A DNA stretch of 62,920 nt, from the IMG/VR virus record IMGVR_UViG_3300043391_000241, positions 1-62,920 of that record; one strand, given 5' to 3'. This stretch comes from a virus. Its lineage: Duplodnaviria; Caudoviricetes. Shown here piece after piece: positions 1-62,920 of this stretch. The position numbers and the translations under genes were made by a program. Each line of letters opens with the position of its first letter. Position 1 is the first letter of the stretch. The notes under the pieces were generated by a model that saw nothing but the letters and a program-made list of their open reading frames with translations, was not told where the DNA came from and searched no databases.

Positions 1-153
1 TTCCGTTGTCATATTTATGACACTCTTTCCGTTGTCATATTTATGACACTCTTTCCGTTGTCATATTTATGACACTCTTTCCGTTGTCATATTTATGACA
101 CTCTTTCCGTTGTCATATTTATGACACTCTTTCCGTTGTCATATTTATGACAC
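1..153. repeat. Tandem array, six copies of 26-bp TTCCGTTGTCATATTTATGACACTCT (last one partial), each containing the 16-bp palindrome
   Basis: Units start at 1, 27, 53, 79, 105 and 131; the array runs to the window edge. Confidence 0.97.
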
Positions 154-162
154 GCCCCGTCC

Positions 163-323
163 GTCAATTATTTTCTCCTATACAATATAAAAAGTCTTAT
201 TTAGAAGTCCTTCACTAATGTGTCCGACACATTAGTGAACAGCATTATGATAAGACTTTTTAACTTACAAAACGCAGCGACATATTAGTCACCGATAAAC
301 GCTAGGATTTCTGCGAACTATGA
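163..323. repeat. Dispersed ~160-bp repeat, copy 1, with a 73-bp nested palindrome (189-261)
   Basis: Near-identical to 60898-61058 and, in part, 21790-21902. Confidence 0.95.
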
Positions 324-366
324 ACCCCGATTCCTCGATCCCGAACCCTCGATCCTGTATCACACA

Positions 367-482
367 CCCGTATCCAGTAACACCTCGCCCGTATCCAGTA
401 ACACCTCGACCATCTTATCCCTCGCCCGTATCCAGTAACACCTCGACCATCTTATCCCTCGCCCGTATCCAGTAACACCTCG
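367..482. repeat. Iteron-like repeats: 21-bp CCCGTATCCAGTAACACCTCG x4 and 16-bp ACCATCTTATCCCTCG x2 (order A-A-B-A-B-A)
   Basis: A at 367, 388, 425 and 462; B at 409 and 446. Confidence 0.92.
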
Positions 483-520
483 CCCGTCCTCTGAAAATAC
501 TTTGCGATTCCTTAAAATAC

Positions 521-569
521 TTATTGACATTTCATGCATAATATGCTATCATATATGGACAGTTGAGAC
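521..569 (+). promoter_or_regulatory. Strong sigma70-type early promoter, copy 1
   Basis: TTGACA-17-TATCAT with extended -10 TG; downstream ATATGGACAGTTGAGA is shared with the copies at ~901 and ~2606. Confidence 0.88.
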
Positions 570-585
570 AGACTGTATGAAGACT

Positions 586-888
586 ATGAATACTAACTCC
601 ACTACCACCGCCCGTTGCTCCTTGTCGGAGTGTCATAAATATGACACCTCCCACAAGCGGCAGAGAAAAGACAACACTCGATCTGTGTGCGAACACCTCA
701 AAATGTTCCAACCCGAACGAGGAAAGACTCGAAACAACTGGTCGTATAAAGCGAAGCGTCCGCCCGAATCGAATAAGGCAAACGCTTTGTTCAATCGCCA
801 ACTCAAGCAATGGGATCGCGCCTGTCAGAAGGGCGACCTCAAAGCGATCATGCGGCTCGCCACTGCCAACCCTAAATTACTTGCCTAA
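586..888 (+). CDS. Hypothetical basic early protein
   Basis: In frame with ORF 502..888; actATG at 586 lies just downstream of the promoter. Confidence 0.5.
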   Translation: MNTNSTTTARCSLSECHKYDTSHKRQRKDNTRSVCEHLKMFQPERGKTRNNWSYKAKRPPESNKANALFNRQLKQWDRACQKGDLKAIMRLATANPKLLA

Positions 889-900
889 CCCTTAAGATTC

Positions 901-948
901 TTATTGACATTCTGTCCATAATATGCTATCATATATGGACAGTTGAGA
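901..948 (+). promoter_or_regulatory. Early promoter, copy 2
   Basis: TTGACA-17-TATCAT with the same conserved downstream block. Confidence 0.88.
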
Positions 949-980
949 AAGACTCTACTGCAAAACAACCTGTCATAAAT

Positions 981-1217
981 ATGACACAACCAATGAAACA
1001 TATGTATCCAATCCGTAAACTATCCGCCGCTTCCCGTAAGCGGGTCACCCGCAGAATCCTCAACCAGCTCCGCTACTTGCGGTGCTGGTACAGCGACGCA
1101 TTGGCAGAAGCCAATACAGCGGAGTTTGATGGCGATGTAATCGCCATGCTCCAACATGAGCAAGAGGCATCTGCCCTCGCTCTCGAAATCCGCGAGCTGG
1201 AAGGGAGGCTCGCATGA
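981..1217 (+). CDS. Hypothetical early protein
   Basis: ORF follows promoter copy 2; the ATG lies inside the palindrome. Confidence 0.7.
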   Translation: MTQPMKHMYPIRKLSAASRKRVTRRILNQLRYLRCWYSDALAEANTAEFDGDVIAMLQHEQEASALALEIRELEGRLA

Positions 1218-1369
1218 TCCCCGTATCCTCCATCCTGATCCTTGCGCTCGTCACCTTCGTGGCGCAAGCCGTGATGTTTGGCGTACTCCGCGCCGTTGTC
1301 TACACGCTGGCAATCGCAAGCGTGATCACCTTCTGCTGGCTAATGGTAGCCGCAGGACTCGTCCTGTAA
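1214..1369 (+). CDS. Small two-helix membrane protein (51 aa, MIPVSSILILALVTFVAQ...)
   Basis: Translated by hand; ATGA overlap with the upstream gene; almost wholly hydrophobic; ends just before a palindrome. Confidence 0.6.
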   Translation: MIPVSSILILALVTFVAQAVMFGVLRAVVYTLAIASVITFCWLMVAAGLVL

Positions 1370-1415
1370 TCTGTCATAAATATGACACAACTGAAACACA
1401 AACACACAAACTACT

Positions 1416-3671: not shown

Positions 3672-4739
3672 ATGTCTCATCCAGAAATTACATCCAACGA
3701 TATCGCCGCCGTACTTGAACGCTCCGCTCTCAGCGGCAACAAGAAAGTCCCACTCTTCTTAGGGGTATACGGCATCGGCAAGTCTTATCAGGGCAACCTG
3801 TTTGCACAGAAGACGGGCCGCGAGCTTGTCGATTACCGCCTGTCCTATCGCACCTTCAACGATGTCCGTGGATTCGGCATCCCGAATCGTGAGACGGGAC
3901 GCATGGAGTGGCTGACTGACGAGGACTTCCCGCAAGATCCGAACGGACGCTACGCCCTGCACTGGGAGGAACTGACTAACGCCATGCCCTCCGTCATGAA
4001 GGTCGCCATGCAAGCGATCCTCGACAGGCGCATTGGCAAGTACCACTTCCCTGAGGACACGATCATGTTCGCATCTGGCAACAGACTATCCCACAAGACT
4101 GGCGTTGAGCGTATGCTCGCCGCTCTCGCTGACCGCCTTGCCATCTACCATGTGCGACCCGATCTGGATTCCTATATGCGATTCCTTGAGACTCATGGCA
4201 AGTCCGCAGAAGTCATGGCGTATCTGTCCAGCAATCCGACTGCCACTTACGACTTCGACATTGCGAAGTGGGATGGCGAGTCCAACTTGCCGACGTTCCG
4301 ATCCTTCGACAGGCTCGACGATCTCGCCGCATCTTACACAGATACGAAGGAGATGGCTGCTGATCCCCTGCTCCGTGCACACGCCGCCTCATGTGTCGGC
4401 GCAAAGCACGGCGAGCAGTTCGCGCAGTACATCAAGCTGACATCTGAGGTAGGAGATGTCGGCAAGATGATCGACGAAGCAGACACTTGTCACATCCCCA
4501 ACGCAGTCGATATCAAGTGGCTCATTGCTTGCCGTTCGATTGTGCTTGCCAACAAGGAGAATCTCGCGCAAGTTCTGTTGCTCGCCCACCGACTGACTGA
4601 TCCAACTCGTAGCGAGCAATCGTTGCAAGCGATGGAGTCCTTCGTTGGCAACACTATCAAACGCAAGAAGCCAGATCTGATGCGCTCCAAAGCGATGATC
4701 GACTGGCACATCAAACATGGCGACACTCTCTCCAGCTGA
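3672..4739 (+). CDS. MoxR-like AAA+ ATPase
   Basis: Walker A GVYGIGKS, Walker B LHWEE, sensor ASGNR, Arg finger ALADR. Confidence 0.85.
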   Translation: MSHPEITSNDIAAVLERSALSGNKKVPLFLGVYGIGKSYQGNLFAQKTGRELVDYRLSYRTFNDVRGFGIPNRETGRMEWLTDEDFPQDPNGRYALHWEELTNAMPSVMKVAMQAILDRRIGKYHFPEDTIMFASGNRLSHKTGVERMLAALADRLAIYHVRPDLDSYMRFLETHGKSAEVMAYLSSNPTATYDFDIAKWDGESNLPTFRSFDRLDDLAASYTDTKEMAADPLLRAHAASCVGAKHGEQFAQYIKLTSEVGDVGKMIDEADTCHIPNAVDIKWLIACRSIVLANKENLAQVLLLAHRLTDPTRSEQSLQAMESFVGNTIKRKKPDLMRSKAMIDWHIKHGDTLSS

Positions 4740-21789: not shown

Positions 21790-21902
21790 GTCAATTATTT
21801 TCTGCTATACAATATAAAAAGTCTTATTTAGAAGTACTTCACTAATGTGTCGGACACATTAGTGAACAGCATTATGATAAGACTTTTTAACTTACAAAAC
21901 GC
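21790..21902. repeat. Dispersed repeat, copy 2 (nested palindrome 21816-21888)
   Basis: Matches copies 1 and 3; abuts the terL stop codon. Confidence 0.95.
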
Positions 21903-23707
21903 TAATCCAGCAAAGCCGTCTCCGAATTGCTGAGTGCGCCACTCAATGACTTGAAAGAGTTTGGCGGCTTCCTGAATCCTGCTTCCGTCGAATCGTTCGG
22001 TGGTTCCATTGCTACCATCCCCAAACGCTGACGGGCGCAATCCAGCGCAAGGAAGGCGGCATCCGCTAAGTCGGGCGACCTGCCGAAGCGGGACTTGAAC
22101 TCTGGCTTTGACTCAATCTTCACTTTTAGCGATCCAGTCTTGACTAGTTCGTAGTTCCTGCTTGTGATTTCCTGTGCCAGATCGGCGGAGATTCCGAATA
22201 ACTGCTTCGTCCGCATCAGTTCCTTGCCCACGAACCACAATTCAGATACACGGTTCACGTAGAGTTCCTCGCCAGTAAGCTTGCTGTTCGCGCTGACACG
22301 CTTGTCAGAGGGCTTGCCGCCGAAACTGACACGGAATATCGATGGCGACCACTCGCCTGCCAGAACGTCACAGAAGGGTGCGCCTGCGCCCGTAGCATCG
22401 ACTGCGAGATTCTCAGGCAAGATGTTCCTACGCTGGCAGTGATCCTTGACTTGCCTCACAATCTGGTACGTTCGCGGAATCGCCTTGTTCGTCGCGTCGT
22501 CGTTCAGTAGGATCGCCTCTCCGAATTCAAAGACGTAATGCCCCGTCGTGTCGTATCCTACTGTGGCAGTATACAGGATCGTCCTGTCGCCCCCATTTGT
22601 AAATGCGGGATCGAGTCCCGCAACAATCGTCGGCTTGCCAGCCCATTCGACTTTGTTCATTGCCTTGCTGGAAGTCAGCTCGACTTCGCTGTAAATCCCT
22701 TGCGTCTCGTCGCTATCAAAGAAGATTGCGCGGATCATCCGCAAGTAGCCTCTGGACTCCGCGCCCAACAAAGCCCTGTCCTCAATCAGCTTTTCCTCTG
22801 TGGGGAGCCAAGGATACAGGACTTCTCCAGCCAGAATGTTGGGAGAACGCTCGCCATCCAGTCGTAAGTAAAAGCCACCCCATTTCGTTTTCCAGTTATC
22901 TGCCGTATTAGTATCCACAGAGTCCCATCCGCGAAGCGGCTCAGACCAGATTCCGAAAGCGTCGAAGCGACTATTCGGGTTGCTCATACCGATCATCTGG
23001 AACTCAGGGTTCTTTGACAAGTTGGTAAGACCCGCATTTAGAATGGCTTCCGAAATTTCAGAAAGCTCGTCTCCGATTACGATGACTCGTTTCTGCTTGA
23101 TACCAATGAACTTGCCAACTGCTTCCCGTGTCTTGCTCTTCTCAGCCGCAATCAGGGATAGTCCAGCCCGTTCGATCAAATCGCCGTTCTCATTGATGTA
23201 CGCGACGTTGCCAATTGAATCCCGAATCTTGCACGGTGCGTTGGGAATCACTGTCAGTAAGCTAATTACGGAACCCCAAATCCGTTTACGGGCTTCACGT
23301 AACGTCGTAGAGGTCATCAGGACGAGCGTGTCCTTTGGCTGAGATAGCCAGTTGATGATTGCCCACGCTGCCATTGTGTGGGATTTTCCGCTTGAGGCTG
23401 ATCCTCCGATTGCCAGATACTTGTTGCCGATAGCGGCACGCACCATTTCTTCAGCCCACGGATGGCGCACCATCAATTTTTCTGGAAGGTCCTCGTTGTT
23501 CCAAAGCTCATCACAGCAACGCCAGAAGTAAAACTCCTTTGCCCTGCTGTTCGTATGATTAGCAAATCCGTAGAGCAAAGCCGTCAAAAGACTCGTCGGA
23601 GGGATCAACAAACCGCCAATATCCATCTTCCTTGTTGTCGGGTCAATACGTGGCTCCAGCAACTTTTTTGTTTTTTCTGACGAAACACTCATTTTTTTCT
23701 TGCCCAC
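21902..23707 (-). CDS. terL: Terminase large subunit
   Basis: Walker A GSASSGKS, Walker B VIGDE, nuclease GLDPAF...GGDR and SPDLADA; the start may be ATG at 23692. Confidence 0.88.
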   Translation of the reverse strand: MGKKKMSVSSEKTKKLLEPRIDPTTRKMDIGGLLIPPTSLLTALLYGFANHTNSRAKEFYFWRCCDELWNNEDLPEKLMVRHPWAEEMVRAAIGNKYLAIGGSASSGKSHTMAAWAIINWLSQPKDTLVLMTSTTLREARKRIWGSVISLLTVIPNAPCKIRDSIGNVAYINENGDLIERAGLSLIAAEKSKTREAVGKFIGIKQKRVIVIGDELSEISEAILNAGLTNLSKNPEFQMIGMSNPNSRFDAFGIWSEPLRGWDSVDTNTADNWKTKWGGFYLRLDGERSPNILAGEVLYPWLPTEEKLIEDRALLGAESRGYLRMIRAIFFDSDETQGIYSEVELTSSKAMNKVEWAGKPTIVAGLDPAFTNGGDRTILYTATVGYDTTGHYVFEFGEAILLNDDATNKAIPRTYQIVRQVKDHCQRRNILPENLAVDATGAGAPFCDVLAGEWSPSIFRVSFGGKPSDKRVSANSKLTGEELYVNRVSELWFVGKELMRTKQLFGISADLAQEITSRNYELVKTGSLKVKIESKPEFKSRFGRSPDLADAAFLALDCARQRLGMVAMEPPNDSTEAGFRKPPNSFKSLSGALSNSETALLD

Positions 23708-24590: not shown

Positions 24591-24895
24591 TGTATCACAA
24601 ATTCAATCAAGAGAATAAGGATCTGATCCTAAAGCTTTCCGCAGAAGAGTTCAGCTGCACAGTAGATGGTATCCTCGCAGTTGACAGATCAAACCGTCCG
24701 TCAAATGCAAGACACGTTTCGATGGCAATCATGAAAGCATTGCTTAAATGTACTCTCACAGAAGTAGCTGCGGTATTTGGCAAGCACTACACTACGGTGA
24801 TACACGCGAAGAAGCGTGTTGATGAAGACAAGCAATTAAAGAACTCTGCTTTAGTCATCATTAGAAAATTTAAAGAGCAGATGACTGAAGAATGA
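24590..24895 (+). CDS. DnaA domain IV-like HTH protein
   Basis: ARHVSM...TLTEVAAVFGKHYTTVIHA, close to the DnaA signature RDHTTVxHA. Confidence 0.8.
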   Translation: MYHKFNQENKDLILKLSAEEFSCTVDGILAVDRSNRPSNARHVSMAIMKALLKCTLTEVAAVFGKHYTTVIHAKKRVDEDKQLKNSALVIIRKFKEQMTEE

Positions 24896-25371
24896 TCGTA
24901 GGCATCGACAACGGACTCGACGGCGGGCTGTGTGCGATCTCAAAGCACAACGGATCGATCATCGACAAGTTAGCGATGCCAACTTTCCAACGCGCTGGAA
25001 AGCGTGAAGTAGATTCAAAGGCAATCTACAACTGGATCTGCGACCTGAATACTGAATCCTTGATCGCGATTGAGGAACCGTTGAAACACGCGAAGTCCTC
25101 ACAGGCGATGCGTTCGATGGGCATTTCGTTCGGGAAGATAATGGGGATGTGCGAGACACGCGACCTCAAAGTCAAGCCGATTCAAGTGCTGGACTGGCAG
25201 AAGAAGATATTGGGCAAAGTTCCAAAGTCCCAAACAAAAATTTACGCCTTACGTAAGGCTAACGAACTCGCGCCCGATGAAGACTGGCGCAAGAACGAAC
25301 GATGCACTGTCCCACATGACGGAATCATTGACGCCTTTTTGATCGCAAGATACGTGCTAGAAAATTCTTGA
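24892..25371 (+). CDS. ruvC: RuvC-like Holliday junction resolvase
   Basis: IVGIDNG, IAIEE, WQKK and DGIIDAFLIA motifs. Confidence 0.85.
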   Translation: MIVGIDNGLDGGLCAISKHNGSIIDKLAMPTFQRAGKREVDSKAIYNWICDLNTESLIAIEEPLKHAKSSQAMRSMGISFGKIMGMCETRDLKVKPIQVLDWQKKILGKVPKSQTKIYALRKANELAPDEDWRKNERCTVPHDGIIDAFLIARYVLENS

Positions 25372-35614: not shown

Positions 35615-37378
35615 ATGACTACATACGCACTAGATTTTGAAACCTACTATGATAAGAGGTGTTCAATAAAAAAATTAGGCCCATTGGGCTATTTCTCGCA
35701 CCCTGACTTTTCAGCCTATATGGTGTCAGTGGTTGGCGATAACGGGTATACGTTCGTTGGAGATCCAAAAGACTTCGACTGGACGCTATTACAGGACAAC
35801 ATTATTCTTTCGCACAATGCTTCCTTCGACGAGACGCTCTACCTTTATGGCGTCACTCAGAATTGGTGGCCCTCTGTTCAAGCTGCCGAATGGTACTGCA
35901 CAGCAGATATGGCGGCATATTGTGGGCTTCCTCGCTCGTTGAAAGGCGCAACTGCTGTTGCCTATAATCTTACTGTGGATAAGTCTACAAGAGATAATAT
36001 GAGCAACAAGACGTGGGAAAAGATGTCTGAGGACTTCAAGAAAGAAGTCAGCGAGTACGCACTCAAAGATTCTGAACTCTGCTTAAAGCTCTGGCAGGAC
36101 TATTCTCCAAAATGGCCGAAGCGTGAGCAAGAGATCAGCTTAGTGAATCGACGCTGTTCTCAACGCGGAATCCCTATGGATACGGAGTTACTCCGCGAGC
36201 AGAAGGAGGTTCTTAACGCAAAGCTATTTGAAGCGGAAGAAGCCATTCCGTGGTTAGGTGATAGGCCGTTGCTTAGTCGTCCAGCCTTCGACGATCAGTG
36301 TCGCCTTGTCGGCATTGAGCCTCCTGCAAGTCTCGCAGAAGGAGATCCAGATGCACAGGAGTGGCTTAGGATGTACGGCAAGAAGTATGCGTGGGTCGAA
36401 GCCGTTAAGAACTGGCGTAGAATCAACGCACTCAAGAAGAAGATCGAGTCGTTTGACTTCGCTACGATGCCAGATGGCCGCTACTACGGCGGCATCATGT
36501 ACTTCGGAGCGCATACAGGACGCTTCAGCGGATCAGGCGGAAATCTTAATCTTCAGAATCTTCCTAAGGGCGCGATGTTCGGAGTCAATCTTCGCAACTT
36601 GATCGCGCCAAAACCCAACCGTAGACTACTCGCAGTCGATCTTTCGCAGATCGAAGTTCGTACTCTATGCTGGCTCGCTAAGGATTCTGAGACTCTCAAA
36701 GAGATTGCAGAATGCTCCGACATCTACGAAGCGTTTGCAATTCGATTCGGCCTTTGGAAGAAGTCCAAAGGCTCGATGAAAGCAAATGATCCAGCTCTCC
36801 GCCACAAAGTGAAAGCAATGGTGTTGGGCTGCGGATACGGAGCAGGATCGGCTAAGTTTGCAGTCATGTCTGGCATGACTGAGAAGGAAGCTGAAGAAGC
36901 TGTCTCACTCTATCGAAGGAAGATGAGCAAAGTTAAGAAGCTTTGGGGGGAACTCAACTCTAATATGGTTACGGCATACGATATGGCTGTGCCGTACACT
37001 GAAGAGATTCCTAGTGGGCGTAGTCTTAATTACGGTCGCCTAAAGCTGTCCAAGACTTCGGGTAATAAGCTCAACTACGTGGCGATCATGCCCCGTGATG
37101 GCAAGCGACTCCCCGTCAAACTATGGGGCGGATTACTTGCTGAGAATCTTAGTCAGGCACTGGCGCGTGATATCTTTTCGGATATGCTCTGTAAGATCCA
37201 TAACGCTGGCTTTGAAATCGTAATGCACGTCCACGACGAAGTTATCGTAGAGGTTGATTCGGACAAAGCCGAAGAGAGCTTGAAACAAATCATCAAAATC
37301 ATGTCCACTGCTCCAGAGTGGATTCCAGACATTCCACTTTCCGCTGAAGGAGACATCTTAACCTGTTATACAAAATGA
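35615..37378 (+). CDS. polA: Family A DNA polymerase with 3'-5' exonuclease
   Basis: DFETY, HNASFD, TGRFSG, DLSQIEVR, KAMVLGCGYG and HVHDE motifs. Confidence 0.95.
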   Translation: MTTYALDFETYYDKRCSIKKLGPLGYFSHPDFSAYMVSVVGDNGYTFVGDPKDFDWTLLQDNIILSHNASFDETLYLYGVTQNWWPSVQAAEWYCTADMAAYCGLPRSLKGATAVAYNLTVDKSTRDNMSNKTWEKMSEDFKKEVSEYALKDSELCLKLWQDYSPKWPKREQEISLVNRRCSQRGIPMDTELLREQKEVLNAKLFEAEEAIPWLGDRPLLSRPAFDDQCRLVGIEPPASLAEGDPDAQEWLRMYGKKYAWVEAVKNWRRINALKKKIESFDFATMPDGRYYGGIMYFGAHTGRFSGSGGNLNLQNLPKGAMFGVNLRNLIAPKPNRRLLAVDLSQIEVRTLCWLAKDSETLKEIAECSDIYEAFAIRFGLWKKSKGSMKANDPALRHKVKAMVLGCGYGAGSAKFAVMSGMTEKEAEEAVSLYRRKMSKVKKLWGELNSNMVTAYDMAVPYTEEIPSGRSLNYGRLKLSKTSGNKLNYVAIMPRDGKRLPVKLWGGLLAENLSQALARDIFSDMLCKIHNAGFEIVMHVHDEVIVEVDSDKAEESLKQIIKIMSTAPEWIPDIPLSAEGDILTCYTK

Positions 37379-39528
37379 ACTATCGTTACCTTAAAAATCT
37401 ACGTGAGACTAAAACCGTCAAAGCTACTAGCCTTGACAAACTGAATAAGCCAAAACCAAAGTTTGCCTCCAAAGCAGACTTCAGAGCGTGGTGTGCCGAT
37501 CTAAGCACTGATCACGTATTCTATAGTGCTGTGGAAGGAAGCACTCCGTCGAAGCGAATTGCAAATGACAACCCGCCAAATCGGATCTACGGAGTAGTAG
37601 CTGACTACGATGCGCCAGTTAATTGGGGCAGCGTCGATAGTGACATTGGAGCTAAGTGCGGCATTAACCTCCCAACATGGAGGACTAAAACGCAGTCGGG
37701 ATACCTGCGGCTCGTATGGGAATTCGACAACGGCATTCCGATTGCGCCTGAGATGTTCGATAGCTTCATGAAGCACATAAATGCGTCGTTGAAGATGGAC
37801 AGGCTCTTTGCGGGCTTCGATAGTACGTCGCTTAAAGCAAGTCAGTACTTTGAGTTAGGAGAAGACTGGCATAACTTAGGCGGTCACATTTCTGACGCGA
37901 CAGTTCAGACTGCGCTGATGAAAGCGGCAAACGATAATCCACCCCAATCAAATGATACATCGATTCCGATTGCCATTATCGCAGCTGAAGTCGAAACCCG
38001 ATTCCCGAATCGTTGGATCGGAGACTTCGATATTGGATCACGCGGGCCGTTGTTCTGGATCGACGATGGAATTAACAGGGACGGGTGTCAGGTTTCAGAG
38101 GACGGGATCATCTGTTACTCTGACCGCGCTGGCAAAGGATTCGTAACATGGAAGGAGATCTTCGGAGCGAAGTTCGTTAAGGAGTACGAGGAGAAGAAGA
38201 TGGGCAATCTGCTGGACGAGTACTGGTACAACGGACGCTCGTTCTTCAAAGTACTCTTCAATTCTGCTGTCACGATTCCACGCGAGCAACTTGTTCTTGA
38301 GCTTCGTCAATCAGGATTCTCCGTCAAGATGAAGAAAGGCCAGCCCCTTTCGGAAGTCGAAGCGGCGATCCTCACGATTTCAAACCAGAATCGAATCGAC
38401 GAGATCGCGCCAGTCGTATTCTCTAAGGATCGCGTTGTCTCGTATAACGGGAATCGAATCCTCAATTGCGCGAACATCAATCCAGTCGAAGCGAGTGACG
38501 ATGGAGATCCAGCGAATTGGCCTTTCATCCATACGTGGCTAAACCAGTTGTTCGTCAACACGCCTACGCAAGCACCCACAGTCGAGTACTTGTATTCGTG
38601 GCTCAAGCGGTTCTACGCCGCTGTCATTGATCGGGAGTTTGTTCAAGGACAGGCGTTACTGCTTGTCGGGCCGACAAACAAAGGCAAGTCGCTCCTGTCA
38701 AACAAAGTGATCTCAGGACTAGTCGGCGGCTATGCTGATGCGTCTGATTACTTGTCGGGCCAGACAAAGTTCAACAAGGACTTGGGTCGGGTAGCCGCAT
38801 GGGTGATTGATGATACAACGTCAGCCGCTTCCTTTCAGGATCAGCGGAAGGCGACTGAACTCATCAAGCGATCCGTTGCCAATCCGCGAGTCGAATATCA
38901 GGCAAAGTATGCAGATGCTCTTTCCGTTCCGTGGACTGGCCGCGTCATTCTGTCACTCAACATGGATGCCAACAGTCTCTCTGTGATTCCAGCACTAGAT
39001 AGTAGTAATAGAGACAAGCTCATGGCGATGCGGATCAGCGATAAGGCGACGAGTAACTTCCCACGAAACTCCGTCTTAGAGGCTACTATCGAGCAAGAGC
39101 TTCCGCACTTCGCACGTTGGCTACTCGACTGGAAGATTCCAAAGTCTATCGAAGACGTTGGCCGCTTTGGGATCGTGAGCTACATCGATGAGTCCGTTGC
39201 TTCAGCGGCTTACGATAACTCAAGTCGTTCGTCCGTTGCAGAGCTTGTCGAGTTCTTTGCGAAGCGTTGTAGAGATCTTACGCCAGACAAGCCCACATGG
39301 TGTGGTACGCTTACAGAGTTTCAGGTTGCACTACATGACTTCAACAACGGGCGTACTGTCGGTATGTCGAGCAATCTGGAATTCGTCCGTCGCGGTATGT
39401 CTACGATGGAGGAAGCTAGTCGGAATAACAAGCACTTGAGGCCCGTCAAGTCTCATGGACAAGGCGGCGGGAAGATTTGGGAAGTCGCCTTAGACTCTAA
39501 GTTCGATATTACAATCACTGACGCCTAA
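37375..39528 (+). CDS. Primase-helicase (prim-pol-like N-terminus, DUF5906-type P-loop)
   Basis: VADYD, TQSGYLRLVW, GPTNKGKS and WVIDD motifs. Confidence 0.8.
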   Translation: MNYRYLKNLRETKTVKATSLDKLNKPKPKFASKADFRAWCADLSTDHVFYSAVEGSTPSKRIANDNPPNRIYGVVADYDAPVNWGSVDSDIGAKCGINLPTWRTKTQSGYLRLVWEFDNGIPIAPEMFDSFMKHINASLKMDRLFAGFDSTSLKASQYFELGEDWHNLGGHISDATVQTALMKAANDNPPQSNDTSIPIAIIAAEVETRFPNRWIGDFDIGSRGPLFWIDDGINRDGCQVSEDGIICYSDRAGKGFVTWKEIFGAKFVKEYEEKKMGNLLDEYWYNGRSFFKVLFNSAVTIPREQLVLELRQSGFSVKMKKGQPLSEVEAAILTISNQNRIDEIAPVVFSKDRVVSYNGNRILNCANINPVEASDDGDPANWPFIHTWLNQLFVNTPTQAPTVEYLYSWLKRFYAAVIDREFVQGQALLLVGPTNKGKSLLSNKVISGLVGGYADASDYLSGQTKFNKDLGRVAAWVIDDTTSAASFQDQRKATELIKRSVANPRVEYQAKYADALSVPWTGRVILSLNMDANSLSVIPALDSSNRDKLMAMRISDKATSNFPRNSVLEATIEQELPHFARWLLDWKIPKSIEDVGRFGIVSYIDESVASAAYDNSSRSSVAELVEFFAKRCRDLTPDKPTWCGTLTEFQVALHDFNNGRTVGMSSNLEFVRRGMSTMEEASRNNKHLRPVKSHGQGGGKIWEVALDSKFDITITDA

Positions 39529-40398: not shown

Positions 40399-40971
40399 CT
40401 AGTTTGTTGTGGTTGAGATCCAGTTTAGTATTCCCTTCGCATACGCTTTGGCTAATTCCTCACGTTTGCTGAAGTAAAGGCAGTTCTCCGTAGCGTTACT
40501 GCCGAAGAAAGGTTCACAGATTACGGCAGGGCAGTGCGTCTTTCGCAAGAAAACACCACCGCGATCCTCTGCATTGATCTGCTTTAGGCCGCGATTCTTC
40601 TGGTTCGGAAACGCTTTTGAGTGGCTTTGCAAGAGTTCGTCGGCAAGCTTTAGTCCCTTTGGACTAGAGAACCAGTGCAAAAACTCGTAGCCGTTGGCGT
40701 ACGGTCCAGCGGAATTGAAATGCAGCTCGATAGCGACATCGACTTTGAGGTCCTTTAAGTGCTGTGCGAGCCACTGCATCGCCGCGCCGTAGCCGTTACC
40801 TTCGTACCGATCCACAAGTACGGTCGCGTGACCCGCTGCTTCGATCAGTTCGCAAACACGTTTAGCAAGCGGTTGGTTAAACGCCCACTCCGTCACGCCT
40901 TCGACGTTCACTGCGCCTCTGTCGCCTGTACGGCTATGGCCCACACATATGGCTACGAGTTTTTTCGTCAT
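40399..40971 (-). CDS. Endolysin, N-acetylmuramoyl-L-alanine amidase (Amidase_3)
   Basis: GHS, E, ELHFNS and ICEPFF motifs. Confidence 0.92.
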   Translation of the reverse strand: MTKKLVAICVGHSRTGDRGAVNVEGVTEWAFNQPLAKRVCELIEAAGHATVLVDRYEGNGYGAAMQWLAQHLKDLKVDVAIELHFNSAGPYANGYEFLHWFSSPKGLKLADELLQSHSKAFPNQKNRGLKQINAEDRGGVFLRKTHCPAVICEPFFGSNATENCLYFSKREELAKAYAKGILNWISTTTN

Positions 40972-58127: not shown

Positions 58128-60377
58128 TTAAGCTTGTTGCTCGCGGAATTGGAGTGCCGATTTTGCATCTCGCATCGATTGCTCCTGATCAAATTTAGCC
58201 TGTCTGATCTTCATGTCAAGTTCTGCTTTTTGTTGTGCGATCTGCATCTTCATCTGATGCTCTTGCATTTTCAATTCCGCGTTGTTCTGAGAAGCCACAG
58301 CGGCTTGATCTTGTTGTGGCATCCCTTCTTGCTGCTGTTGGGCTTGATCCCGTTGGATCTTCTGCAAAGCTTTCGTCGTGTTGTTGATCGCCTCGTCAGC
58401 AATTTGCAGAAGCTGTTTGGATTGTCCAACAATAGATGCGAGCATTGGATCTGCTCCAGCAAACTGGAGTGTCTCAGAGATGTGCTGGTAAAAGGCTTGA
58501 AGAATCGGCAGTACTTGTTGTGGATCGGCTGCGCCAGTGTTGATCTGTTCGATGATCTGGTTGAGCAACGGCAAGTGTGCTTGCAAGTGCATCCCGTGCA
58601 TTTCAGACGGAAGCACTGGAACTGGCTGTCCAGCTTGAAGCTGCTGGTTCTCAAAGTAGGCAATCTTGACATCGACAGTCTGACGATCTTCAGTCTCCTT
58701 CGGAACGTAACGATCTGCGAGATCATGGCCCACGCGTGTGCTAACGATATCCCGTGTCAAGTTCCTGCGACCGACTTCATCGAACGTGCCAGACATGGCT
58801 TGCAATTCGCGAAGTGCAACAACACGATTTGCTTGTGAGCCGCCGCCGACGGAACGAACTGCCCGCGTCTTGTTCAGATCAAGCGACTTGATAAATTCCA
58901 GTTCTACTCCGCGAGCCTCACATCTCGCGAAGAACTCGCGAACTGCTGGATCAGGTCTTTTGAGATTAATGACGCGCCTTACAATCTCCCTCATCAAACG
59001 GCTCCAAGCGGAGTAGAACAGATTTAAGCTCGCGCCTGAAAGACGCGTTGCAACATCGATGTCAGACATAACCTGCATCTGGTTCCTGTACGGTGATCCC
59101 TGATTCGGGCCGTAGGTAGAAACAGTGTCGGTGTTCTGTTGCAGTTGATTTGTGAGATCCTGCAAGGCTGGCATTACTGCCTGTGAGAGATTCGGGATCG
59201 CCTTCTCGACGATCTTTACGTTTGGCGAAACAATTGCATACGCGCCGTAGTAGGTGAACTGCAACTCGTCTAGAGCGCGTTGCGATTCAGGCTGGAGCAT
59301 CACAGCAGAACTTAGCATCGCGCCGTCGATCATCTGACAACGCAAACGATTGCTCGTCTGAATGTGGTTGAAGATCCGCTGGCCCAATCCGCGAATCGAG
59401 TGGAATGTTCCGTTGGAACCGACGCCGTATGTGAACATCACATAAGCTTGTTCGGGCGAGGCATAGCGTGAAACTTTCTTGTAGATGAAGTCTTTAGGAG
59501 TGTCTTCCGCGCAGATAAAGTGCGAGACAGTGCCGTCCATCTCGCGAACTAAGAAGTGCAATACAGCGACAGTAGGATTCTGGAGTCCAGTGTAGAGATC
59601 GTTGTTCTTAAGCTCCTGTTGGATCGCTTCCCAATCGGTGTATAGCGAACCGCCTTCGCTGTAGCGACGGCCCGTTGTCTTGACGTTTTTGACAATGATC
59701 CGCTTTACTTCGTCAGGAAGCCAGCCGATCTTCGTAGCGACATCTTCGTTCTTGATGAACGAGAAGAGTTCGTGCAACAAGTAGTCACGCCTGATGACAG
59801 CTACGTCTACTGCGTTCTCTGAGGAAGGGGTCTGGCGCGGAATGAGGATATCTGTGAACCCGCCGACACGAAACTTCCAGTCGTCAGGCGAATCGAAGTA
59901 GGCGACGCCGACTCCGTGTTTGATGAACGTCGTGCAGAGGCGCAAGTAGCTGCTGTGAAACTCAGGCCAGTTACGCAGCAAGTGGGTAAACTCTTCTGCG
60001 ATTACGTCCTGCTTGTAGCCCATCTGGCTCTGCTCGCCCAACGTGCCTTTGACTTCGACGAGACACTCAAGCGAACTGTAGAGGTCAACGTAAGCGGAGA
60101 GGGAGATGTCCAACAAGCGTTGAGCTTCTCCGAAGTTTAGGTTCGTTTTGAGTTGCTGGTTTGTGGCAAGCAGTTTTGCATTATCGTAAGGAGCCGCGCC
60201 GTCGAACATCCCGTCGATCCGCGCACGGACAACAGAAGACTTCTCGTCGCCCCTACGCAATGAAGCAAAAATGGAAAGCGCACTAGCTACGTCTTTAAGT
60301 CTGGACTCAACGGGCTTCCCTTTCTCATCTAGCGAAAGCAAATCGAGTCCGTTGATGTCTAAGTGGCTTGCCAACAT
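58128..60377 (-). CDS. Portal protein (putative)
   Basis: 749 aa, Q-rich coiled-coil C-terminus, first large gene of the head module. Confidence 0.75.
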   Translation of the reverse strand: MLASHLDINGLDLLSLDEKGKPVESRLKDVASALSIFASLRRGDEKSSVVRARIDGMFDGAAPYDNAKLLATNQQLKTNLNFGEAQRLLDISLSAYVDLYSSLECLVEVKGTLGEQSQMGYKQDVIAEEFTHLLRNWPEFHSSYLRLCTTFIKHGVGVAYFDSPDDWKFRVGGFTDILIPRQTPSSENAVDVAVIRRDYLLHELFSFIKNEDVATKIGWLPDEVKRIIVKNVKTTGRRYSEGGSLYTDWEAIQQELKNNDLYTGLQNPTVAVLHFLVREMDGTVSHFICAEDTPKDFIYKKVSRYASPEQAYVMFTYGVGSNGTFHSIRGLGQRIFNHIQTSNRLRCQMIDGAMLSSAVMLQPESQRALDELQFTYYGAYAIVSPNVKIVEKAIPNLSQAVMPALQDLTNQLQQNTDTVSTYGPNQGSPYRNQMQVMSDIDVATRLSGASLNLFYSAWSRLMREIVRRVINLKRPDPAVREFFARCEARGVELEFIKSLDLNKTRAVRSVGGGSQANRVVALRELQAMSGTFDEVGRRNLTRDIVSTRVGHDLADRYVPKETEDRQTVDVKIAYFENQQLQAGQPVPVLPSEMHGMHLQAHLPLLNQIIEQINTGAADPQQVLPILQAFYQHISETLQFAGADPMLASIVGQSKQLLQIADEAINNTTKALQKIQRDQAQQQQEGMPQQDQAAVASQNNAELKMQEHQMKMQIAQQKAELDMKIRQAKFDQEQSMRDAKSALQFREQQA

Positions 60378-60416
60378 TCACAGCAGAATAACGAATCCGC
60401 AGAAGTTGTCAACACT

Positions 60417-60860
60417 TTATTCGCTTTGAGCTGTACCCCATGTCTGTTCCATGAGTCGTTTAACATTGATCGTTCGCTGCTGTCCGAACTTGTTGGCGAT
60501 CCTGACGTAGCGGTTGTTGCCTTTGAAGTGTTCCTTCAAGATGAAAGGCTCGCCAGCATTCGGACCTTTGCAAGCTGGCTTTAAGCACCAGATGGCTCCG
60601 TAGGGCGTCACGCCGTATTTCTGGTTGTCTGGCAGCGGGCGTATCTGTTCGCGTGATAGCGTGTCCTTTGCAGCGTTCGTATGGCAGGAATCATGGCACA
60701 GGTAAAAGGGTCGGCCAGCAGAGTCGCGAATGTGCGATCTCCAGCGTCCGCTAACCCACTGGCGTTTGATTCTCCGCTTCGTCTTTACATTGTACACGTA
60801 GCCGCTTTCGGCTAAGGCGTAGTCGGGAGCGTTCGATAATGGTTTCAGTTCAGTTTGCAT
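60417..60860 (-). CDS. Tandem NUMOD4-like domain protein
   Basis: Two units: KPLSNAPDYALAESGYVYN and RPLPDNQKYGVTPYGAIW. Confidence 0.55.
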   Translation of the reverse strand: MQTELKPLSNAPDYALAESGYVYNVKTKRRIKRQWVSGRWRSHIRDSAGRPFYLCHDSCHTNAAKDTLSREQIRPLPDNQKYGVTPYGAIWCLKPACKGPNAGEPFILKEHFKGNNRYVRIANKFGQQRTINVKRLMEQTWGTAQSE

Positions 60861-60897
60861 ATGGTCAGGCGTTCAGGTTGGTGTCAGGCTTTATTTT

Positions 60898-61058
60898 GTC
60901 AATTATTTTCTGCTATACAATATAAAAAGTCTTATTTAGAAGTCCTTCACTAATGTGTCGGACACATTAGTGAACAGTGTTATGATAAGACTTTTTAACT
61001 TACAAATCGTAGGGACTTATTAGTTACCGATAAACACTAGGATTTCTGCGAACTATGA
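60898..61058. repeat. Dispersed repeat, copy 3 (nested palindrome 60924-60996)
   Basis: Near-identical to 163-323. Confidence 0.95.
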
Positions 61059-61117
61059 CGCTGTTTTTGGCTTCGTCAATTCTTTTCTGCTGAGTTGGGA
61101 CATATTAAGGAAAAGTG

Positions 61118-61369
61118 TTACATATTAGTTTTTACAGAACTAGCCTCTTTTGCTCGATTTGCACGGTGTTCCCTGATTCGCGCACGATTCTCCAGATAGT
61201 ACGCACGCTGGTACTCGCGCTGCTTTTCATATTTCTCTGGCTCAAGCGTTTCTTGCAATTCTCGCTTACGCTTAACAAGTTGTGCATTGTTCCTGTAATA
61301 GGCTTTCTGATACGTGAGTCGGGAATCCCGATTCGTTTTGTAGTACTCTTGCTTCTTTTGGTCTGGCAT
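61118..61369 (-). CDS. Small basic helical protein (YY-xx-NR repeats)
   Basis: ATG at 61369 follows a TTGACA promoter-like element. Confidence 0.6.
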   Translation of the reverse strand: MPDQKKQEYYKTNRDSRLTYQKAYYRNNAQLVKRKRELQETLEPEKYEKQREYQRAYYLENRARIREHRANRAKEASSVKTNM

Positions 61370-61570
61370 GGACAGACTGTTAAGCCGATTTGGAGGGCTG
61401 TCAATTTTTTTCTCTACACATATACACACGCACACATGTGGCACGAAAAAGCCGACCCCCACCCGTAGCGTGGTTCCCGATTCCTGATACAATATGCATG
61501 GTTCATGGCGCGGGGGACGGGAAGCGGGGTGCGTGGGAAGGTGTGGAGGTGACGGGGTGCATGGCGCGGG

Positions 61571-61586
61571 TGTCATATTTATGACG
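61571..61586 (-). promoter_or_regulatory. Palindrome site in reverse orientation (TGTCATATTTATGACG)
   Basis: 15/16 match to the early-region motif. Confidence 0.75.
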
Positions 61587-61665
61587 GGTGGGCGGATTTC
61601 ACTCTTCCCCCCTCTTAAGTGAGGGAAGCACCTTAACAACCAAACGCTAACCCCTCAATGAAGTT

Positions 61666-62331
61666 ATGAAAACTACTAAAAACAAAGTTGTGGCAACTCC
61701 AGTTGTCGAAGTTGTCGAAGTTGTCGAAGTTGTCGAAGTTGTCGATGCTAAGGGCGATCATCAGCCCGCGACGATTGCAAACCAGTTCCCAATTGAACTG
61801 GTAGCCTGCGGAGTGAACCTTGCAAAGCAATCAATGAAGGGAAACAAATCCTTCGCGGAGCTTGCAAGCCTTTGCATAGTCCAAGGAGTGGATTGGCAAG
61901 CACTGATCAAATTTGCCTATGTCGAAGCGGGCGGAATCGGTAGGGATGCGCGTGGGACAATTACAAATTGCTCCAAGTTCATCGCGGCGTCACTCGCCGT
62001 TCGCGAAGGTAAGCTAGATGCCCGCGAATTCGCGAACCTCAAGACGGATGTCGCGTCTGCCGCTTTCAAGCAAGCGGGCGGCATGAAAGACGGCGGGCTG
62101 AATCCCGACGAATGGCTTGAAGCCTATCGTAATCCCGCCGCAAAGGCGGAAGCGGGCGGCGGTGAAGCGGGCGGTGAAGCGGGCGGTGAAGCGGGCGGCG
62201 GCGGAAAGCCTATGTCACCCGATGCCTTTGTTCTCGCGCTCATCTTGCAGAAACGAAATGAGATGAGCGTAGAAGGGCGGAAAGCTGCCGCCGCCGCGCT
62301 CATTGAAGGTATGACGAAGGCCGACTTATAA
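61666..62331 (+). CDS. Hypothetical protein with VVE and EAGG repeats
   Basis: 221-aa ORF followed by terminators. Confidence 0.7.
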   Translation: MKTTKNKVVATPVVEVVEVVEVVEVVDAKGDHQPATIANQFPIELVACGVNLAKQSMKGNKSFAELASLCIVQGVDWQALIKFAYVEAGGIGRDARGTITNCSKFIAASLAVREGKLDAREFANLKTDVASAAFKQAGGMKDGGLNPDEWLEAYRNPAAKAEAGGGEAGGEAGGEAGGGGKPMSPDAFVLALILQKRNEMSVEGRKAAAAALIEGMTKADL

Positions 62332-62333
62332 AC

Positions 62334-62410
62334 CACTTTGCCCGCCCTTGAAAAAGGGCGGGCATTTGCTTGTTCACTTTGCCCGCCCTTGAAAAAGGGC
62401 GGGCTTTTTG
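62334..62410 (+). terminator. Duplicated intrinsic terminator GCCCGCCCTT-GAAA-AAGGGCGGGC
   Basis: Two tandem copies, the second followed by TTTTT. Confidence 0.88.
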
Positions 62411-62412
62411 CT

Positions 62413-62920
62413 TGTCACGCTGTCACGCTGTCACGCTGTCACGCTCTCACGCTGTCACGCTGTCACGCTGTCACCTGTCACGCTCTCACGCTGTCACGCT
62501 GTCACGCTGTCACGCTGTCACGCTGTCACGCTGTCACGCTGTCACGCTGTCACGCTGTCACGCTGTCACGCTCTCACGCTGTCACGCTGTCACGCTCTCA
62601 CGCTGTCACCTGTCACGCTGTCACCTGTCACGCTCTCACGCTGTCACGCTGTCACGCTGTCACGCTGTCACGCTGTCACGCTGTCACGCTGTCACGCTGT
62701 CACGCTCTCACGCTGTCACCTGTCACGCTGTCACCTGTCACGCTCTCACGCTGTCACGCTGTCACGCTGTCACGCTGTCACGCTGTCACGCTGTCACGCT
62801 GTCACGCTGTCACGCTGTCACGCTGTCACGCTCTCACGCTGTCACCTGTCACGCTGTCACGCTGTCACGCTGTCACCTGTCACCTGTCACGCTGTCACCT
62901 GTCACGCTGTCACCTGTCAC
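62413..62920. repeat. Octamer satellite (CTGTCACG)n with CTCTCACG and CTGTCAC variants
   Basis: Continuous ~500 bp to the window end. Confidence 0.97.

Follow-up and report, generated by a model that had tools for sequence, protein, structure and literature searches.

The genome of an uncultured marine phage, analyzed as one stretch that comprises the entire record of 62,920 bp (1..62920) and will be referred to as the window, contains no CCNGG site, and its predicted proteins contain no Pro-Gly (PG) dipeptide. The absence of the site, its statistical strength, its spread through a clade of relatives, the CCNGG specificity in those relatives and the replacement of PG at aligned positions were all observed directly. 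The loss is best explained by restriction avoidance carried to completion, which we regard as probable, the selective agent presumably being one or more host restriction endonucleases.

CCNGG and Pro-Gly in the window

Counting on both strands and for each of the four N yielded zero CCNGG, as the first-pass annotation had noticed, while three null models predicted between 87 and 201 sites. Base composition gave 201 (four 5-mers summed), in agreement with the roughly 200 chance sites that had been estimated for even composition, a first-order Markov model gave 121.6, and 200 synonymous codon shuffles within genes, keeping the proteins fixed, gave 87.2 ± 8.8 with a minimum of 66. The Markov count and the survey of short words, both proposed earlier, place CCNGG far under expectation and not near it. 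The survey also revealed two absences missing from the first-pass annotation, those of CCGG and of numerous hexamer palindromes. CCGG (135.8 expected) is the sole 4-mer out of 256 not found in the window, and the ten missing 5-mers out of 1,024 are CCAGG, CCTGG and eight words containing CCGG, with no others. Among the hexamers, 26 of 64 palindromes are absent compared to 87 of 4,032 non-palindromes. The loss of CCNGG in the window is one part of a broad palindrome avoidance.

Greedy calling gave 72 genes with 19,368 aa in total, from which PG alone of the 400 dipeptides is missing (58.3 expected). It does not occur in any of the six full-frame translations either, which extends what had been seen in the ORFs. 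Since Pro is encoded only by CCN and Gly only by GGN, the site has no synonymous exit in the frame CCN-GGN; its avoidance there needed amino-acid replacement, so that PG became extinct in the proteome. In the other two reading frames, synonymous codons would suffice for removal. Shuffling codons with the proteins fixed, and thus with PG already missing, still recreates approximately 87 CCNGG, demonstrating that codon choice actively avoids the site and that the avoidance acts on the DNA, on both strands and in all frames, and does not reflect the exclusion of one dipeptide at the protein level.

Alignment of homologues at PG positions, also suggested earlier, demonstrated that PG has been lost where relatives retain it. 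The window aligns with PG of some relative at 44 positions and there has pairs such as PN, PT, PD, PA, PC or AG; P is kept at 19, G at 10 and neither at 15 of these. By a tally of the position list, 16 sites have PG in four or more relatives, and the window keeps P or G at 15 of them. PG was conserved in 0 of 153 aligned cells, compared to 29-61% for control dipeptides. Most replacements retain one residue, and the Gly was often exchanged for Asn or Asp, which cope better than other residues with the left-handed turn conformation that Gly adopts. Such positions were found in the terminase large subunit (21902..23707, minus strand; PN155, PC158 and PA367, with PG in 6, 11 and 6 outgroup loci), the PD-(D/E)XK/DUF2800 exonuclease (33504..34616, plus strand; AG27, PT209 and PT286, with PG in 11, 6 and 14 relatives), the family A DNA polymerase PolA (35615..37378, plus strand; PA237, PD245, PN334 and PD571, with PG in 3, 5, 10 and 7 relatives), a primase/helicase-like protein (DUF5906; 37375..39528, plus strand; PE125, AG146, PN211 and QG424, with PG in 5, 5, 9 and 4 relatives) and a 749-aa protein with no family match (58128..60377, minus strand; PN385 and PA477, with PG in 5 and 4 relatives).

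Of four conserved motifs that the first-pass annotation had listed as altered, three hold. The RuvC-like Holliday junction resolvase (24892..25371, plus strand), which matches PHROG 1770 (E=2.8e-13) and PHROG 159 (E=1.2e-9) and yielded no PDB or Pfam match by sequence search, has the N-terminal catalytic motif GIDNG (aa 4-8, nt 24901-24915), for which five out of six remote phage homologues have GIDPG. The form G[IV]DNG is present in all 39 ingroup loci with an N-terminal match and in 118 of 120 homologue clusters among the matches listed (429 hits overall). Both the N-terminal G-I/V-D-x-G motif and the family match are present, D6, G8 and G11 are invariant in the resolvase alignment, and we take the Asp of the motif to be the catalytic residue. 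In the N4 gp24-type (MoxR-like) ATPase (3672..4739, plus strand; PHROG 1297, tblastn and alignment), the Walker A motif reads GVYGIGKS (aa 31-38, nt 3762-3785), compared to SPG[MI]GKS in four of six homologues of this type. A 60-aa ORF (27769..27951, plus strand) contains GGDPNEW (nt 27868-27888), and three of five marine-phage homologues (HMO-2011, HTVC033P and MEP402) read GG[AK]PGQW; it has no Pfam match at E ≤ 0.01, and its earlier label "DUF5872-like" found no backing. The fourth motif, ICVGH (aa 8-12, nt 40936-40950) of the Amidase_3 endolysin (40399..40971, minus strand; Pfam PF01520), is present as described but is a weak example of PG loss: PDB alignments show TAGH, TVGH, DPGH and DAGH at this place, the two closest solved homologues having TAGH and TVGH, and DPGH occurs in one of the four alignments listed.

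Site avoidance among the relatives

PolA served as marker for finding relatives and for building a tree. Of 60 ingroup loci, 49 are free of CCNGG and 57 are free of CCWGG, with 38 CCWGG observed compared to 1,313 expected across all 60. As CCGG is also zero in the window, CCNGG is not separable there from CCGG plus CCWGG, and the true CCNGG specificity is evident from the relatives only. In 39 ingroup loci, 726 CCGG are retained, with no CCCGG or CCGGG among them (251.7 expected); all 39 are within the 49 CCNGG-free loci, hence CCWGG is zero there too. Forty-seven CCNGG-free loci contain 2 PG in 194,541 aa (570 expected), and in 35 outgroup loci PG is at expectation (629 observed, 625.5 expected).

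In the PolA tree, a clade of 55 rows contains 48 CCNGG-free rows with nested exceptions. On 94 rows, the CCNGG-free state changes 8 times compared to a mean of 37.7 in shuffles, a clustering that kinship alone produces. CCNGG avoidance is clade-wide and old, in line with the long-term selection originally proposed, the absence being far beyond chance and selective, not mutational. The purge is near-universal in the clade over roughly 0.5-1 PolA substitutions per site; a sporadic host enzyme would have to explain this, which is a counterpoint to restriction avoidance. The trait spans contigs of 38-53% GC, which hints at several hosts. The specificity drifts inside the clade, with only CCWGG avoided in L005, L006 and L060 and only CCSGG in L007 and L093, and in lineages where the constraint may later have been relaxed, PG has climbed back to just about 0.25-0.45 of expectation and GIDNG is retained.

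The window's subclade shows in addition a purge of CCNAG/CTNGG, which is a new finding and a counterpoint to a plain CCNGG enzyme, since such an enzyme does not predict it. In the window, 80 of these words compare to 312 expected from synonymous shuffling, an approximately 4-fold depletion, and in three independent contigs CCNAG/CTNGG is the most depleted XYNZW word. Within the subclade, strong depletion affects the inner-C transition neighbours but spares those that differ at the outer C. Elsewhere in the clade, CCNAG/CTNGG has an O/E of 0.82 and is thus not enriched.

Possible causes of the site loss

Under restriction avoidance, incoming phage DNA would be unmethylated and, as no phage methylase was found, would be exposed to host nucleases that recognize the CC(N)GG family (CCNGG, CCWGG, CCSGG and CCGG). 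Lineages losing sites would escape, and in the long run no CCNGG would be left; in the window's lineage, avoidance of CCGG and of many hexamer palindromes would have been added onto the older CCNGG avoidance. Consistent with the first-pass annotation, which had seen no phage methylase, no methyltransferase families were detected by PHROGs (41 ORFs), Pfam (55 ORFs, 48 + 7), NCBIfam (48) or PADLOC (34) at cut-offs of E ≤ 1e-3 to 1e-5, although unannotated proteins could still hide one.

Enzymes named for sites of the CC(N/W/S)GG type are ScrFI, SsoII, BssKI, BcnI and MvaI. As CCNGG is one of many avoided sites, the 26 hexamer palindromes included, the single host system of the ScrFI/SsoII type proposed earlier is not implied. 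The suggested use of the avoidance as a handle for host prediction likewise turned out to be weak. Ingroup contigs were binned with four MAGs of three phyla (Planctomycetota, Bacteroidota and Verrucomicrobiota), three of which show mild CCWGG depletion (O/E 0.42-0.61) and the fourth an O/E of 1.3 (approximately 43-81 kb sampled each). In the phylum of one candidate MAG, EcoRII-C genes occur in 5 and the MvaI/BcnI family in 7 (6 over the cut-off) of 151 sampled genomes, and CCWGG is avoided also by unrelated phages, whose contigs were binned with several phyla. Systems against such sites are active in the sea, as indicated by the portion of a marine survey considered here, in which CCNGG ranked second in frequency among the methylated motifs of viral MAGs and a prokaryotic MAG yielded a match to a CCSGG methylase (Hiraoka et al. 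2022, PMC8919816). As a counterpoint, five of five Verrucomicrobia MAGs in that survey were without methylated motifs or methylase genes. Both CCNGG and CCGG count as common Type II sites in the part of Rusinov et al. 2018 (PMC6286503) used here.

An improbable alternative is that C5- or N4-methylation of CCNGG/CCWGG in one host marks the phage, which is then cut by Type IV or Type IIM nucleases of the next host, so that a site-free phage stays unmarked. Such pressure would be steadier than that of any single Type II enzyme, the Type IV site SCNGS strongly overlaps CCNGG (Rusinov et al. 2018, PMC6286503, same part), and CCNGG/CCWGG methylation exists in marine viral MAGs (Hiraoka et al. 2022, PMC8919816, same portion), but by itself it leaves unexplained why many unrelated hexamer palindromes vanished in parallel, a pattern resembling ordinary Type II pressure. 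We give considerably less credence to the idea that the phage itself encodes a CCNGG nuclease for degrading host DNA and, being without a methylase, must be site-free. This would account for stable inheritance down the clade, seen in the few state changes on the tree, and for persistence over a range of GC contents and hence perhaps of hosts, and approximately half of the window's genes are without assigned function. However, kinship suffices for the clustering on the tree, the avoided specificity drifts, and one phage enzyme cannot explain the many other avoided palindromes. Moreover, apart from the RuvC-like resolvase and the DUF2800/PD-(D/E)XK exonuclease, the latter being present also in outgroups that carry CCNGG, the scanned ORFs matched no family of restriction enzymes, HNH nucleases or other nucleases with site specificity.

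Deamination of 5mC is a known mutational hotspot process, and the methylated inner C of CCNGG might have decayed to T without selection, a passive erosion like vertebrate CpG loss. This is very unlikely, as the products CTNGG/CCNAG are depleted in the window and show no excess elsewhere in the clade, decay would not prevail against the purifying selection on conserved PG motifs, for instance the catalytic GIDPG of RuvC or Walker A, 49 of 60 loci have not a single CCNGG, and no methylase was found that could mark the sites. An artefact of sequencing, assembly or gene calling can practically be dismissed, because dozens of contigs, assembled independently and from many samples, share the absence, the aligned proteins differ in amino acids accordingly and, for PG, the absence holds in all six frames.

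Relation to known systems

Classical avoidance of restriction sites (palindromes) in phage genomes was reportedly described by Sharp in 1986 and Rocha in 2001. The window resembles these cases in that short palindromic Type II sites lie far under expectation in a dsDNA phage without a methylase, many sites are avoided together and the avoidance works mainly through codon choice. It differs from them in that CCN-GGN offers no synonymous escape and the whole dipeptide is gone from the proteome of a deep clade, catalytic motifs included. Restriction-site avoidance in phages is treated by Rusinov et al. 2018 (PMC6286503) and in the review of Callens et al. 2021 (PMC8410138), as far as the parts used here extend. 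The marine viruses that methylate CCNGG/CCWGG in the portion of Hiraoka et al. 2022 (PMC8919816) considered here share the motif family, the environment and presumably the host-defence class; they keep and modify their sites, whereas in the window's clade the sites are deleted and no methylase is detectable.

A mirror case is provided by Verrucomicrobia phage P8625 (KP792622.1) and Akkermansia-binned relatives, in which GGNCC is avoided (2 compared to 73 expected in P8625) and GP is missing (none in the 10,228 aa of its greedily called ORFs, compared to 26.9 expected). GGN-CCN is likewise without synonymous escape, the site and the dipeptide being different from those of the window. P8625 retains CCNGG (60 compared to about 75), encodes an annotated DNA methylase and is only distantly related to the window phage (RuvC-like protein 31% identical).

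E. coli has an excess of CCWGG at the cost of CTWGG, Vsr and inner-C methylases acting at the inner C; the Vsr repair signature, depletion of CTWGG/CCWAG, was reportedly described by Bhagwat and McClelland in 1992. The window's subclade is similarly depleted in the inner-C transition words CTNGG/CCNAG. Unlike in E. coli, both word sets are depleted, CCNGG being zero, and neither Vsr nor a methylase was found in the phage. By analogy, Vsr-type repair may be linked to the CCNAG/CTNGG depletion, as a hypothesis only.

N4-like phages (Schitoviridae) provide the best cultured-phage matches of the ATPase, namely N4 gp24-type proteins with 20-27% identity in the full-length matches, and the window carries one giant ORF (3729 aa), as N4 has its virion RNA polymerase gene. 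This ORF has no Pfam match, and a tblastn search of 50,697 phage records with its central 1301 aa found none. The identity of PolA to any cultured phage does not exceed 28%. Membership in the N4-like phages was set aside, as no N4 gp50 homology was found for the giant ORF (central 1301 aa, Pfam).

Two linked readings can tentatively be proposed, although we doubt that both apply: restriction enzymes may sculpt protein space over the long term, and the window's subclade may be under an additional, asymmetric CCNRG/CYNGG pressure. The latter specificity is undescribed and could belong to a relaxed-specificity or monomeric CC-N-GG nuclease; alternatively, the pressure could come from a process tied to methylation of the inner C and to repair of the Vsr type. 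Either source would explain why CCNAG/CTNGG is the most depleted word of its kind in three contigs. If the sculpting reading is true, an abundant marine phage clade has lived PG-free for about 0.5-1 PolA substitutions per site, rebuilding catalytic motifs from GIDPG to GIDNG in RuvC and from PG to YG in Walker A. Sites composed of two four-fold codon boxes leave no synonymous escape, CCNGG corresponding to Pro-Gly and GGNCC to Gly-Pro, and by the same logic this would hold for GCNGC (Ala-Ala), GTNAC (Val-Thr) and ACNGT (Thr-Val).

Absence of CCNGG and Pro-Gly from the window

CCNGG does not occur in the window with any of the four central bases, and the first-pass annotation was right in claiming that both this word and the dipeptide Pro-Gly (PG), which is always encoded CCN-GGN, are missing. 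Its estimate of about 200 sites by chance holds for the crudest null, base composition, which predicts 201; a first-order Markov model predicted 121.6, and shuffling synonymous codons within genes while keeping the proteins yielded 87.2 ± 8.8 (minimum 66 of 200 shufflings). For the CCWGG part only, 87 sites were expected from a maximal-order Markov model. CCGG is likewise absent (135.8 expected) and is the sole missing 4-mer of 256, and of the 1024 5-mers just ten are missing, namely, CCAGG, CCTGG and all eight with CCGG inside. At the protein level, PG (0 compared to 58.3 expected) is the only one of 400 dipeptides missing from the predicted genes, and it was not found in any of the six whole-frame translations either. 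NG (100 compared to 64) and SG (132 compared to 97) are in excess.

The absence of CCNGG belongs to a wider avoidance of palindromes, chiefly those rich in G+C. Of the 64 hexamer palindromes 26 are absent, compared to 87 of the 4032 nonpalindromic hexamers, and in total 468 hexamer palindromes were observed where 1000 were expected. Since some palindromes are tolerated, for example, GATATC (24), ATCGAT (31) and AAGCTT (34), the avoidance is site-specific and does not reflect a general dislike of symmetry. The asymmetric pair CACGAG/CTCGTG is nearly gone as well (1 and 1 compared to ~17 expected each). CCNNGG is low (22 compared to 109) but was rejected as a separate target, as its depletion is mostly a by-product: 12 of its 16 words contain an avoided word or are themselves avoided hexamers. 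AGCGCC, GGCGCT and AGCGCT all have a count of 0. GATC (395 compared to 268) and GTAC (229 compared to 157) are in excess in the window; across much of the clade, GTAC is avoided (observed/expected ratio, O/E, 0.33) and is missing altogether from 16 of 60 loci.

The window spans an entire record (62,920 bp, G+C 47.6%) and represents a tailed-phage genome, for which a greedy gene call yielded 72 genes (19,368 aa) that occupy 92% of its length. The recognisable genes encode the terminase large subunit (21902-23707, -), a RuvC-like resolvase (24892-25371, +), a PD-(D/E)XK/DUF2800 exonuclease (33504-34616, +), a family A DNA polymerase (PolA; 35615-37378, +), an Amidase_3 endolysin (40399-40971, -) and a GP88/MoxR-like ATPase/DUF2201 module (1416-6319), as well as a helicase, an RNA ligase and a primase-like protein. 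An ORF of 3729 aa (8680-19869, -) occupies 18% of the genome; its size and position recall the N4-type virion RNA polymerase, but its sequence gives no support for this. No Pfam match was obtained for this ORF, and its central 1301 aa had no tblastn match among 50,697 phage records. Searching the same records with pieces of the window by megablast and tblastn revealed no close cultured relative; PolA shares no more than 28% identity with that of any cultured phage, and the ATPase resembles N4 gp24-type proteins with 20-27% identity over full-length matches. A protein with the N-terminal domain of a dATP/dGTP diphosphohydrolase (PF18909, E = 9e-29; 29576-30253, +) adjoins a PHROG 3704 "ferredoxin" protein (28959-29588, +); neither a PurZ-like gene nor any other gene for base modification was recognised in the window. 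Two small proteins (8262-8693, +, and 24590-24895, +) carry the DnaA C-terminal helix-turn-helix (PF08299; E = 9.9e-8 and 1.4e-12, respectively). The window contains no tRNAs.

Specificity and inheritance of CCNGG avoidance among relatives

Because CCCGG and CCGGG contain CCGG, avoidance of CCNGG is inseparable from avoidance of CCGG plus CCWGG in the window, and the relatives decide. A scan of IMG/VR with PolA yielded 569 relatives, the best 80 of which (L001-L080) range from 100% down to 31% identity; relatives were compared over PolA ±10 kb. Across the 60 ingroup loci (L004-L063), CCWGG was found 38 times compared to 1313 expected and was absent from 57 loci, and CCNGG was absent from 49, whereas CCGG was only halved (990 compared to 2155) and absent from 11. 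A set of 39 loci has 726 CCGG sites in all, none of them with a C before or a G after, although 251.7 of these were expected. This pattern is the signature of avoiding CCNGG as such. Among loci of at least 8 kb, the nested lineages L005, L006 and L060 avoid CCWGG only, L007 and L093 avoid mainly CCSGG, and L019 avoids neither fully.

A PolA tree of 94 rows was calculated rapidly with IQ-TREE, with SH-aLRT as the sole measure of support. Loci entered it if they were at least 7 kb long and had a single stop-free PolA match of 520 residues or more, which excluded 36 of 129 loci. The ingroup formed a clade of 56 rows with full support (SH-aLRT 100), and 48 CCNGG-free rows lay within a 55-row subset of it, in which the CCWGG-only, CCSGG-only and unrestricted rows were also nested, except for the basal L060. 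CCNGG is present in the sister groups, most of whose contigs were binned with MAGs of Akkermansia or other Verrucomicrobiota. The tree requires 8 changes of avoidance state compared to a mean of 37.7 after shuffling; since kinship alone clusters labels, this demonstrates inheritance and not cause.

PG content, counted in greedy ORFs with expectations from composition, differed among the avoidance classes. The 47 CCNGG-free loci (194,541 aa) contained 2 PG compared to 570 expected, and the 35 loci of the unrestricted outgroup 629 compared to 625.5. Intermediate values were obtained for the CCWGG-only (8 loci; 63 compared to 141) and CCSGG-only loci (3 loci; 15 compared to 53). The relaxed lineages have regained only part of a normal PG content.

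The PolA match spans ~2.6 kb and not ~1.76 kb in L059 (10001-12631) and L063 (10001-12604), which suggests an insertion inside the polymerase gene (an intein, an intron or a homing-endonuclease gene). Seven distant PolA relatives binned with several unrelated phyla (L119, L124, L126, L127, L130, L132 and L135) have 0-1 CCWGG compared to 11-40 expected, whereas their CCSGG reaches roughly half of the expected count or more (O/E 0.5-2.7); avoidance of CCWGG only is widespread among phage-like contigs.

Replacement of Pro-Gly in conserved proteins

The 72 window genes were compared with L001-L080 by tblastn. A relative has PG in 153 locus-by-site cells, which correspond to 44 distinct window positions, and the window has PG at none of them. 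By cell, the window pairs are PN (30), PT (20), AG (18), PD (14), PA (13), PC (11) and rarer ones. Other dipeptides were conserved in 29-61% of cells in the same alignments (GP 61%, AG 50%, PD 49%). By hand tally, Pro is kept at 19 of the 44 positions, Gly at 10 and neither at 15; among the 16 positions with PG in four or more relatives, one of the two residues survives at 15. Changes from Gly to Asn and from Gly to Asp are frequent, which would agree with turn geometry.

Three of the four motifs that the first-pass annotation had named as altered were borne out by homologues. GIDNG in the RuvC-like resolvase corresponds to GIDPG in five of six homologues picked from 15 records, the sixth being GIDCG of the Verrucomicrobia phage P8625 (KP792622.1). 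G[IV]DNG was present in all 39 ingroup loci with an N-terminal match and in 118 of the 120 homologue clusters listed, from 429 protein clusters in all, some of them from Tara samples; it is retained even in lineages that now tolerate some CCNGG. The Walker A motif GVYGIGKS of the ATPase corresponds to SPG[MI]GKS in four of six N4 gp24-type homologues (picked from 661 records), and GGDPNEW in a small ORF (27769-27951) to GG[AK]PGQW in three of five homologues (of 17 records). The amidase motif ICVGH turned out to be a weak example: among four alignments from six PDB matches, the two closest solved structures have TAGH and TVGH, and of the more distant ones one has DPGH and another DAGH.

The small ORF, described as DUF5872-like in the first-pass annotation, had no Pfam match. 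Its 60-aa product shares 60-79% identity with genes from phages that infect SAR116 (HMO-2011), Roseobacter (CRP-1 and others), SAR11 (HTVC phages) and OM43 (MEP401/402), and is thus common to very different marine phages. A programmed frameshift between 27769-27951 and 27885-28190 was rejected, as the two are separate adjacent genes in MEP402 and HTVC115P. The downstream gene probably starts at a GTG that overlaps the TGA stop of the small ORF and has GGAGG a few bases upstream.

Causes and significance of the avoidance

The loss of CCNGG is best explained by selection through restriction. The avoidance acts at the level of the DNA word, whatever the frame or strand; many other palindromes of the Type II-like kind were lost alongside, and avoidance of CCNGG has prevailed over purifying selection at catalytic motifs. 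Four profile libraries revealed no methyltransferase or restriction-enzyme family in the window. Passive decay of CCNGG by deamination of 5-methylcytosine is disfavoured, since its products CTNGG and CCNAG are themselves depleted. Parts of a marine metaepigenome study (PMC8919816) give CCNGG as the second commonest methylated motif in viral MAGs and match a CCSGG methylase to its motif in a prokaryotic MAG; target motifs of the CCNGG family are in play in the sea.

CCNAG and CTNGG differ from CCNGG by one transition, at the inner C, and together they occur 80 times in the window compared to 312 ± 14 after synonymous shuffling (z = -16.6); no flanking pattern was seen at these residual sites. 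An unbiased ranking of XYNZW words in the window, L004 and L059 placed CCNAG/CTNGG as the most depleted, followed by CCNGG. Counts were 5 compared to 107.5 in L004 and 26 compared to 113 in L059. The depletion is confined to the subclade of the window, with the lowest ratios in L001-L004, L059 and L071; O/E was 0.19 for the pooled window, L004 and L059, 0.82 for the other ingroup loci and 1.19 for the outgroup. Leu before Gly is encoded by TTR in 68 of 78 cases, though CTN accounts for 72% of all Leu codons. The outer-position neighbours TCNGG/CCNGA escape depletion (O/E 1.19). The depleted set is CCNRG/CYNGG. A graded CYNRG model was considered as well; CTNAG is only mildly low, and its O/E of 0.73 in the subclade (0.86 at maximal order) lies a little below the 0.83 (0.96) of the remaining ingroup loci, a difference that speaks neither for nor against the model. 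One possible cause of this purge is a nuclease whose recognition of the inner position is relaxed or asymmetric; alternatively, a process tied to methylation of the inner cytosine and Vsr-type T:G repair might be responsible, the background to the latter being the VSP signature in E. coli.

The interpretation in the first-pass annotation stands in part: the sites are absent and restriction selection is the likeliest cause, whereas CCNGG as a handle for host prediction is weak on its own. Ingroup contigs were binned inconsistently with four MAGs from three phyla (Blastopirellula, Altibacter, Verrucomicrobiales and Opitutae), and such binning is unreliable; CCWGG O/E in these MAGs was 0.48, 0.61, 0.42 and 1.3 (43-81 kb sampled from each), which is not decisive. 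Genes of the EcoRII-C and MvaI/BcnI families were found in only 5 and 7 of 151 sampled genomes from the phylum of one candidate MAG, and CCWGG-only avoidance also occurs in unrelated contigs binned with Sutterellaceae, Legionella, Flavobacteriales, Cellvibrionaceae and an actinobacterium. A section of the marine study describes its five Verrucomicrobia MAGs as unmethylated (PMC8919816). The loci with 36-40% PolA identity (L098-L117, L129 and L136) fall almost exclusively into bins of Akkermansia, Verrucomicrobiales, Luteolibacter or Kiritimatiellia MAGs, and the contigs of some are 118-210 kb long, a size suggestive of elements that are integrated or linked to the host. Akkermansia/Verrucomicrobiales binning is the only consistent host signal, and it applies to this outgroup or the wider group.

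A mirror case was found for Gly-Pro (GP), which is always encoded GGN-CCN. In P8625, GGNCC occurs twice compared to 73 expected, and GP is absent from 10,228 aa (26.9 expected). An Akkermansia-binned relative (L113) has 3 GGNCC compared to 122 expected and 2 GP compared to 17, and in L102, L108 and L111, too, GGNCC is almost gone and GP absent or near-absent. Dipeptide loss by avoidance of XYN-X'Y' words is therefore not unique to the clade of the window. P8625 encodes an annotated DNA methylase. It was rejected as a cultured relative that avoids CCNGG, since it retains this word (60 compared to ~75 expected), and avoidance of CCNGG does not explain its GIDCG.

Restriction-site avoidance is well known, and a passage of Callens et al. 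(2021; PMC8410138) describes it as a synonymous, codon-level effect. In the literature outside subscription journals and supplements, we found nothing on dipeptide loss or other non-synonymous effects. Unusual here are the completeness and age of the avoidance, its effect on proteins and the extra CCNRG signal; the depletion of CCNAG/CTNGG points to an as yet unexplained defence specificity or repair-linked process. The rule that links words to dipeptides (CCNGG to PG, GGNCC to GP and so on) is general and can be surveyed across all phage genomes, PG-free ORFs provide a simple, alignment-free marker for the clade, and, as P8625 is cultured, dipeptide loss of this kind is open to experiment. 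In this widespread uncultured marine phage clade, one of 400 dipeptides is extinct in the proteome and conserved catalytic motifs were forced to change, most likely by a restriction-type pressure, which represents a natural experiment on the replaceability of the Pro-Gly turn, on which substitutes work and where.
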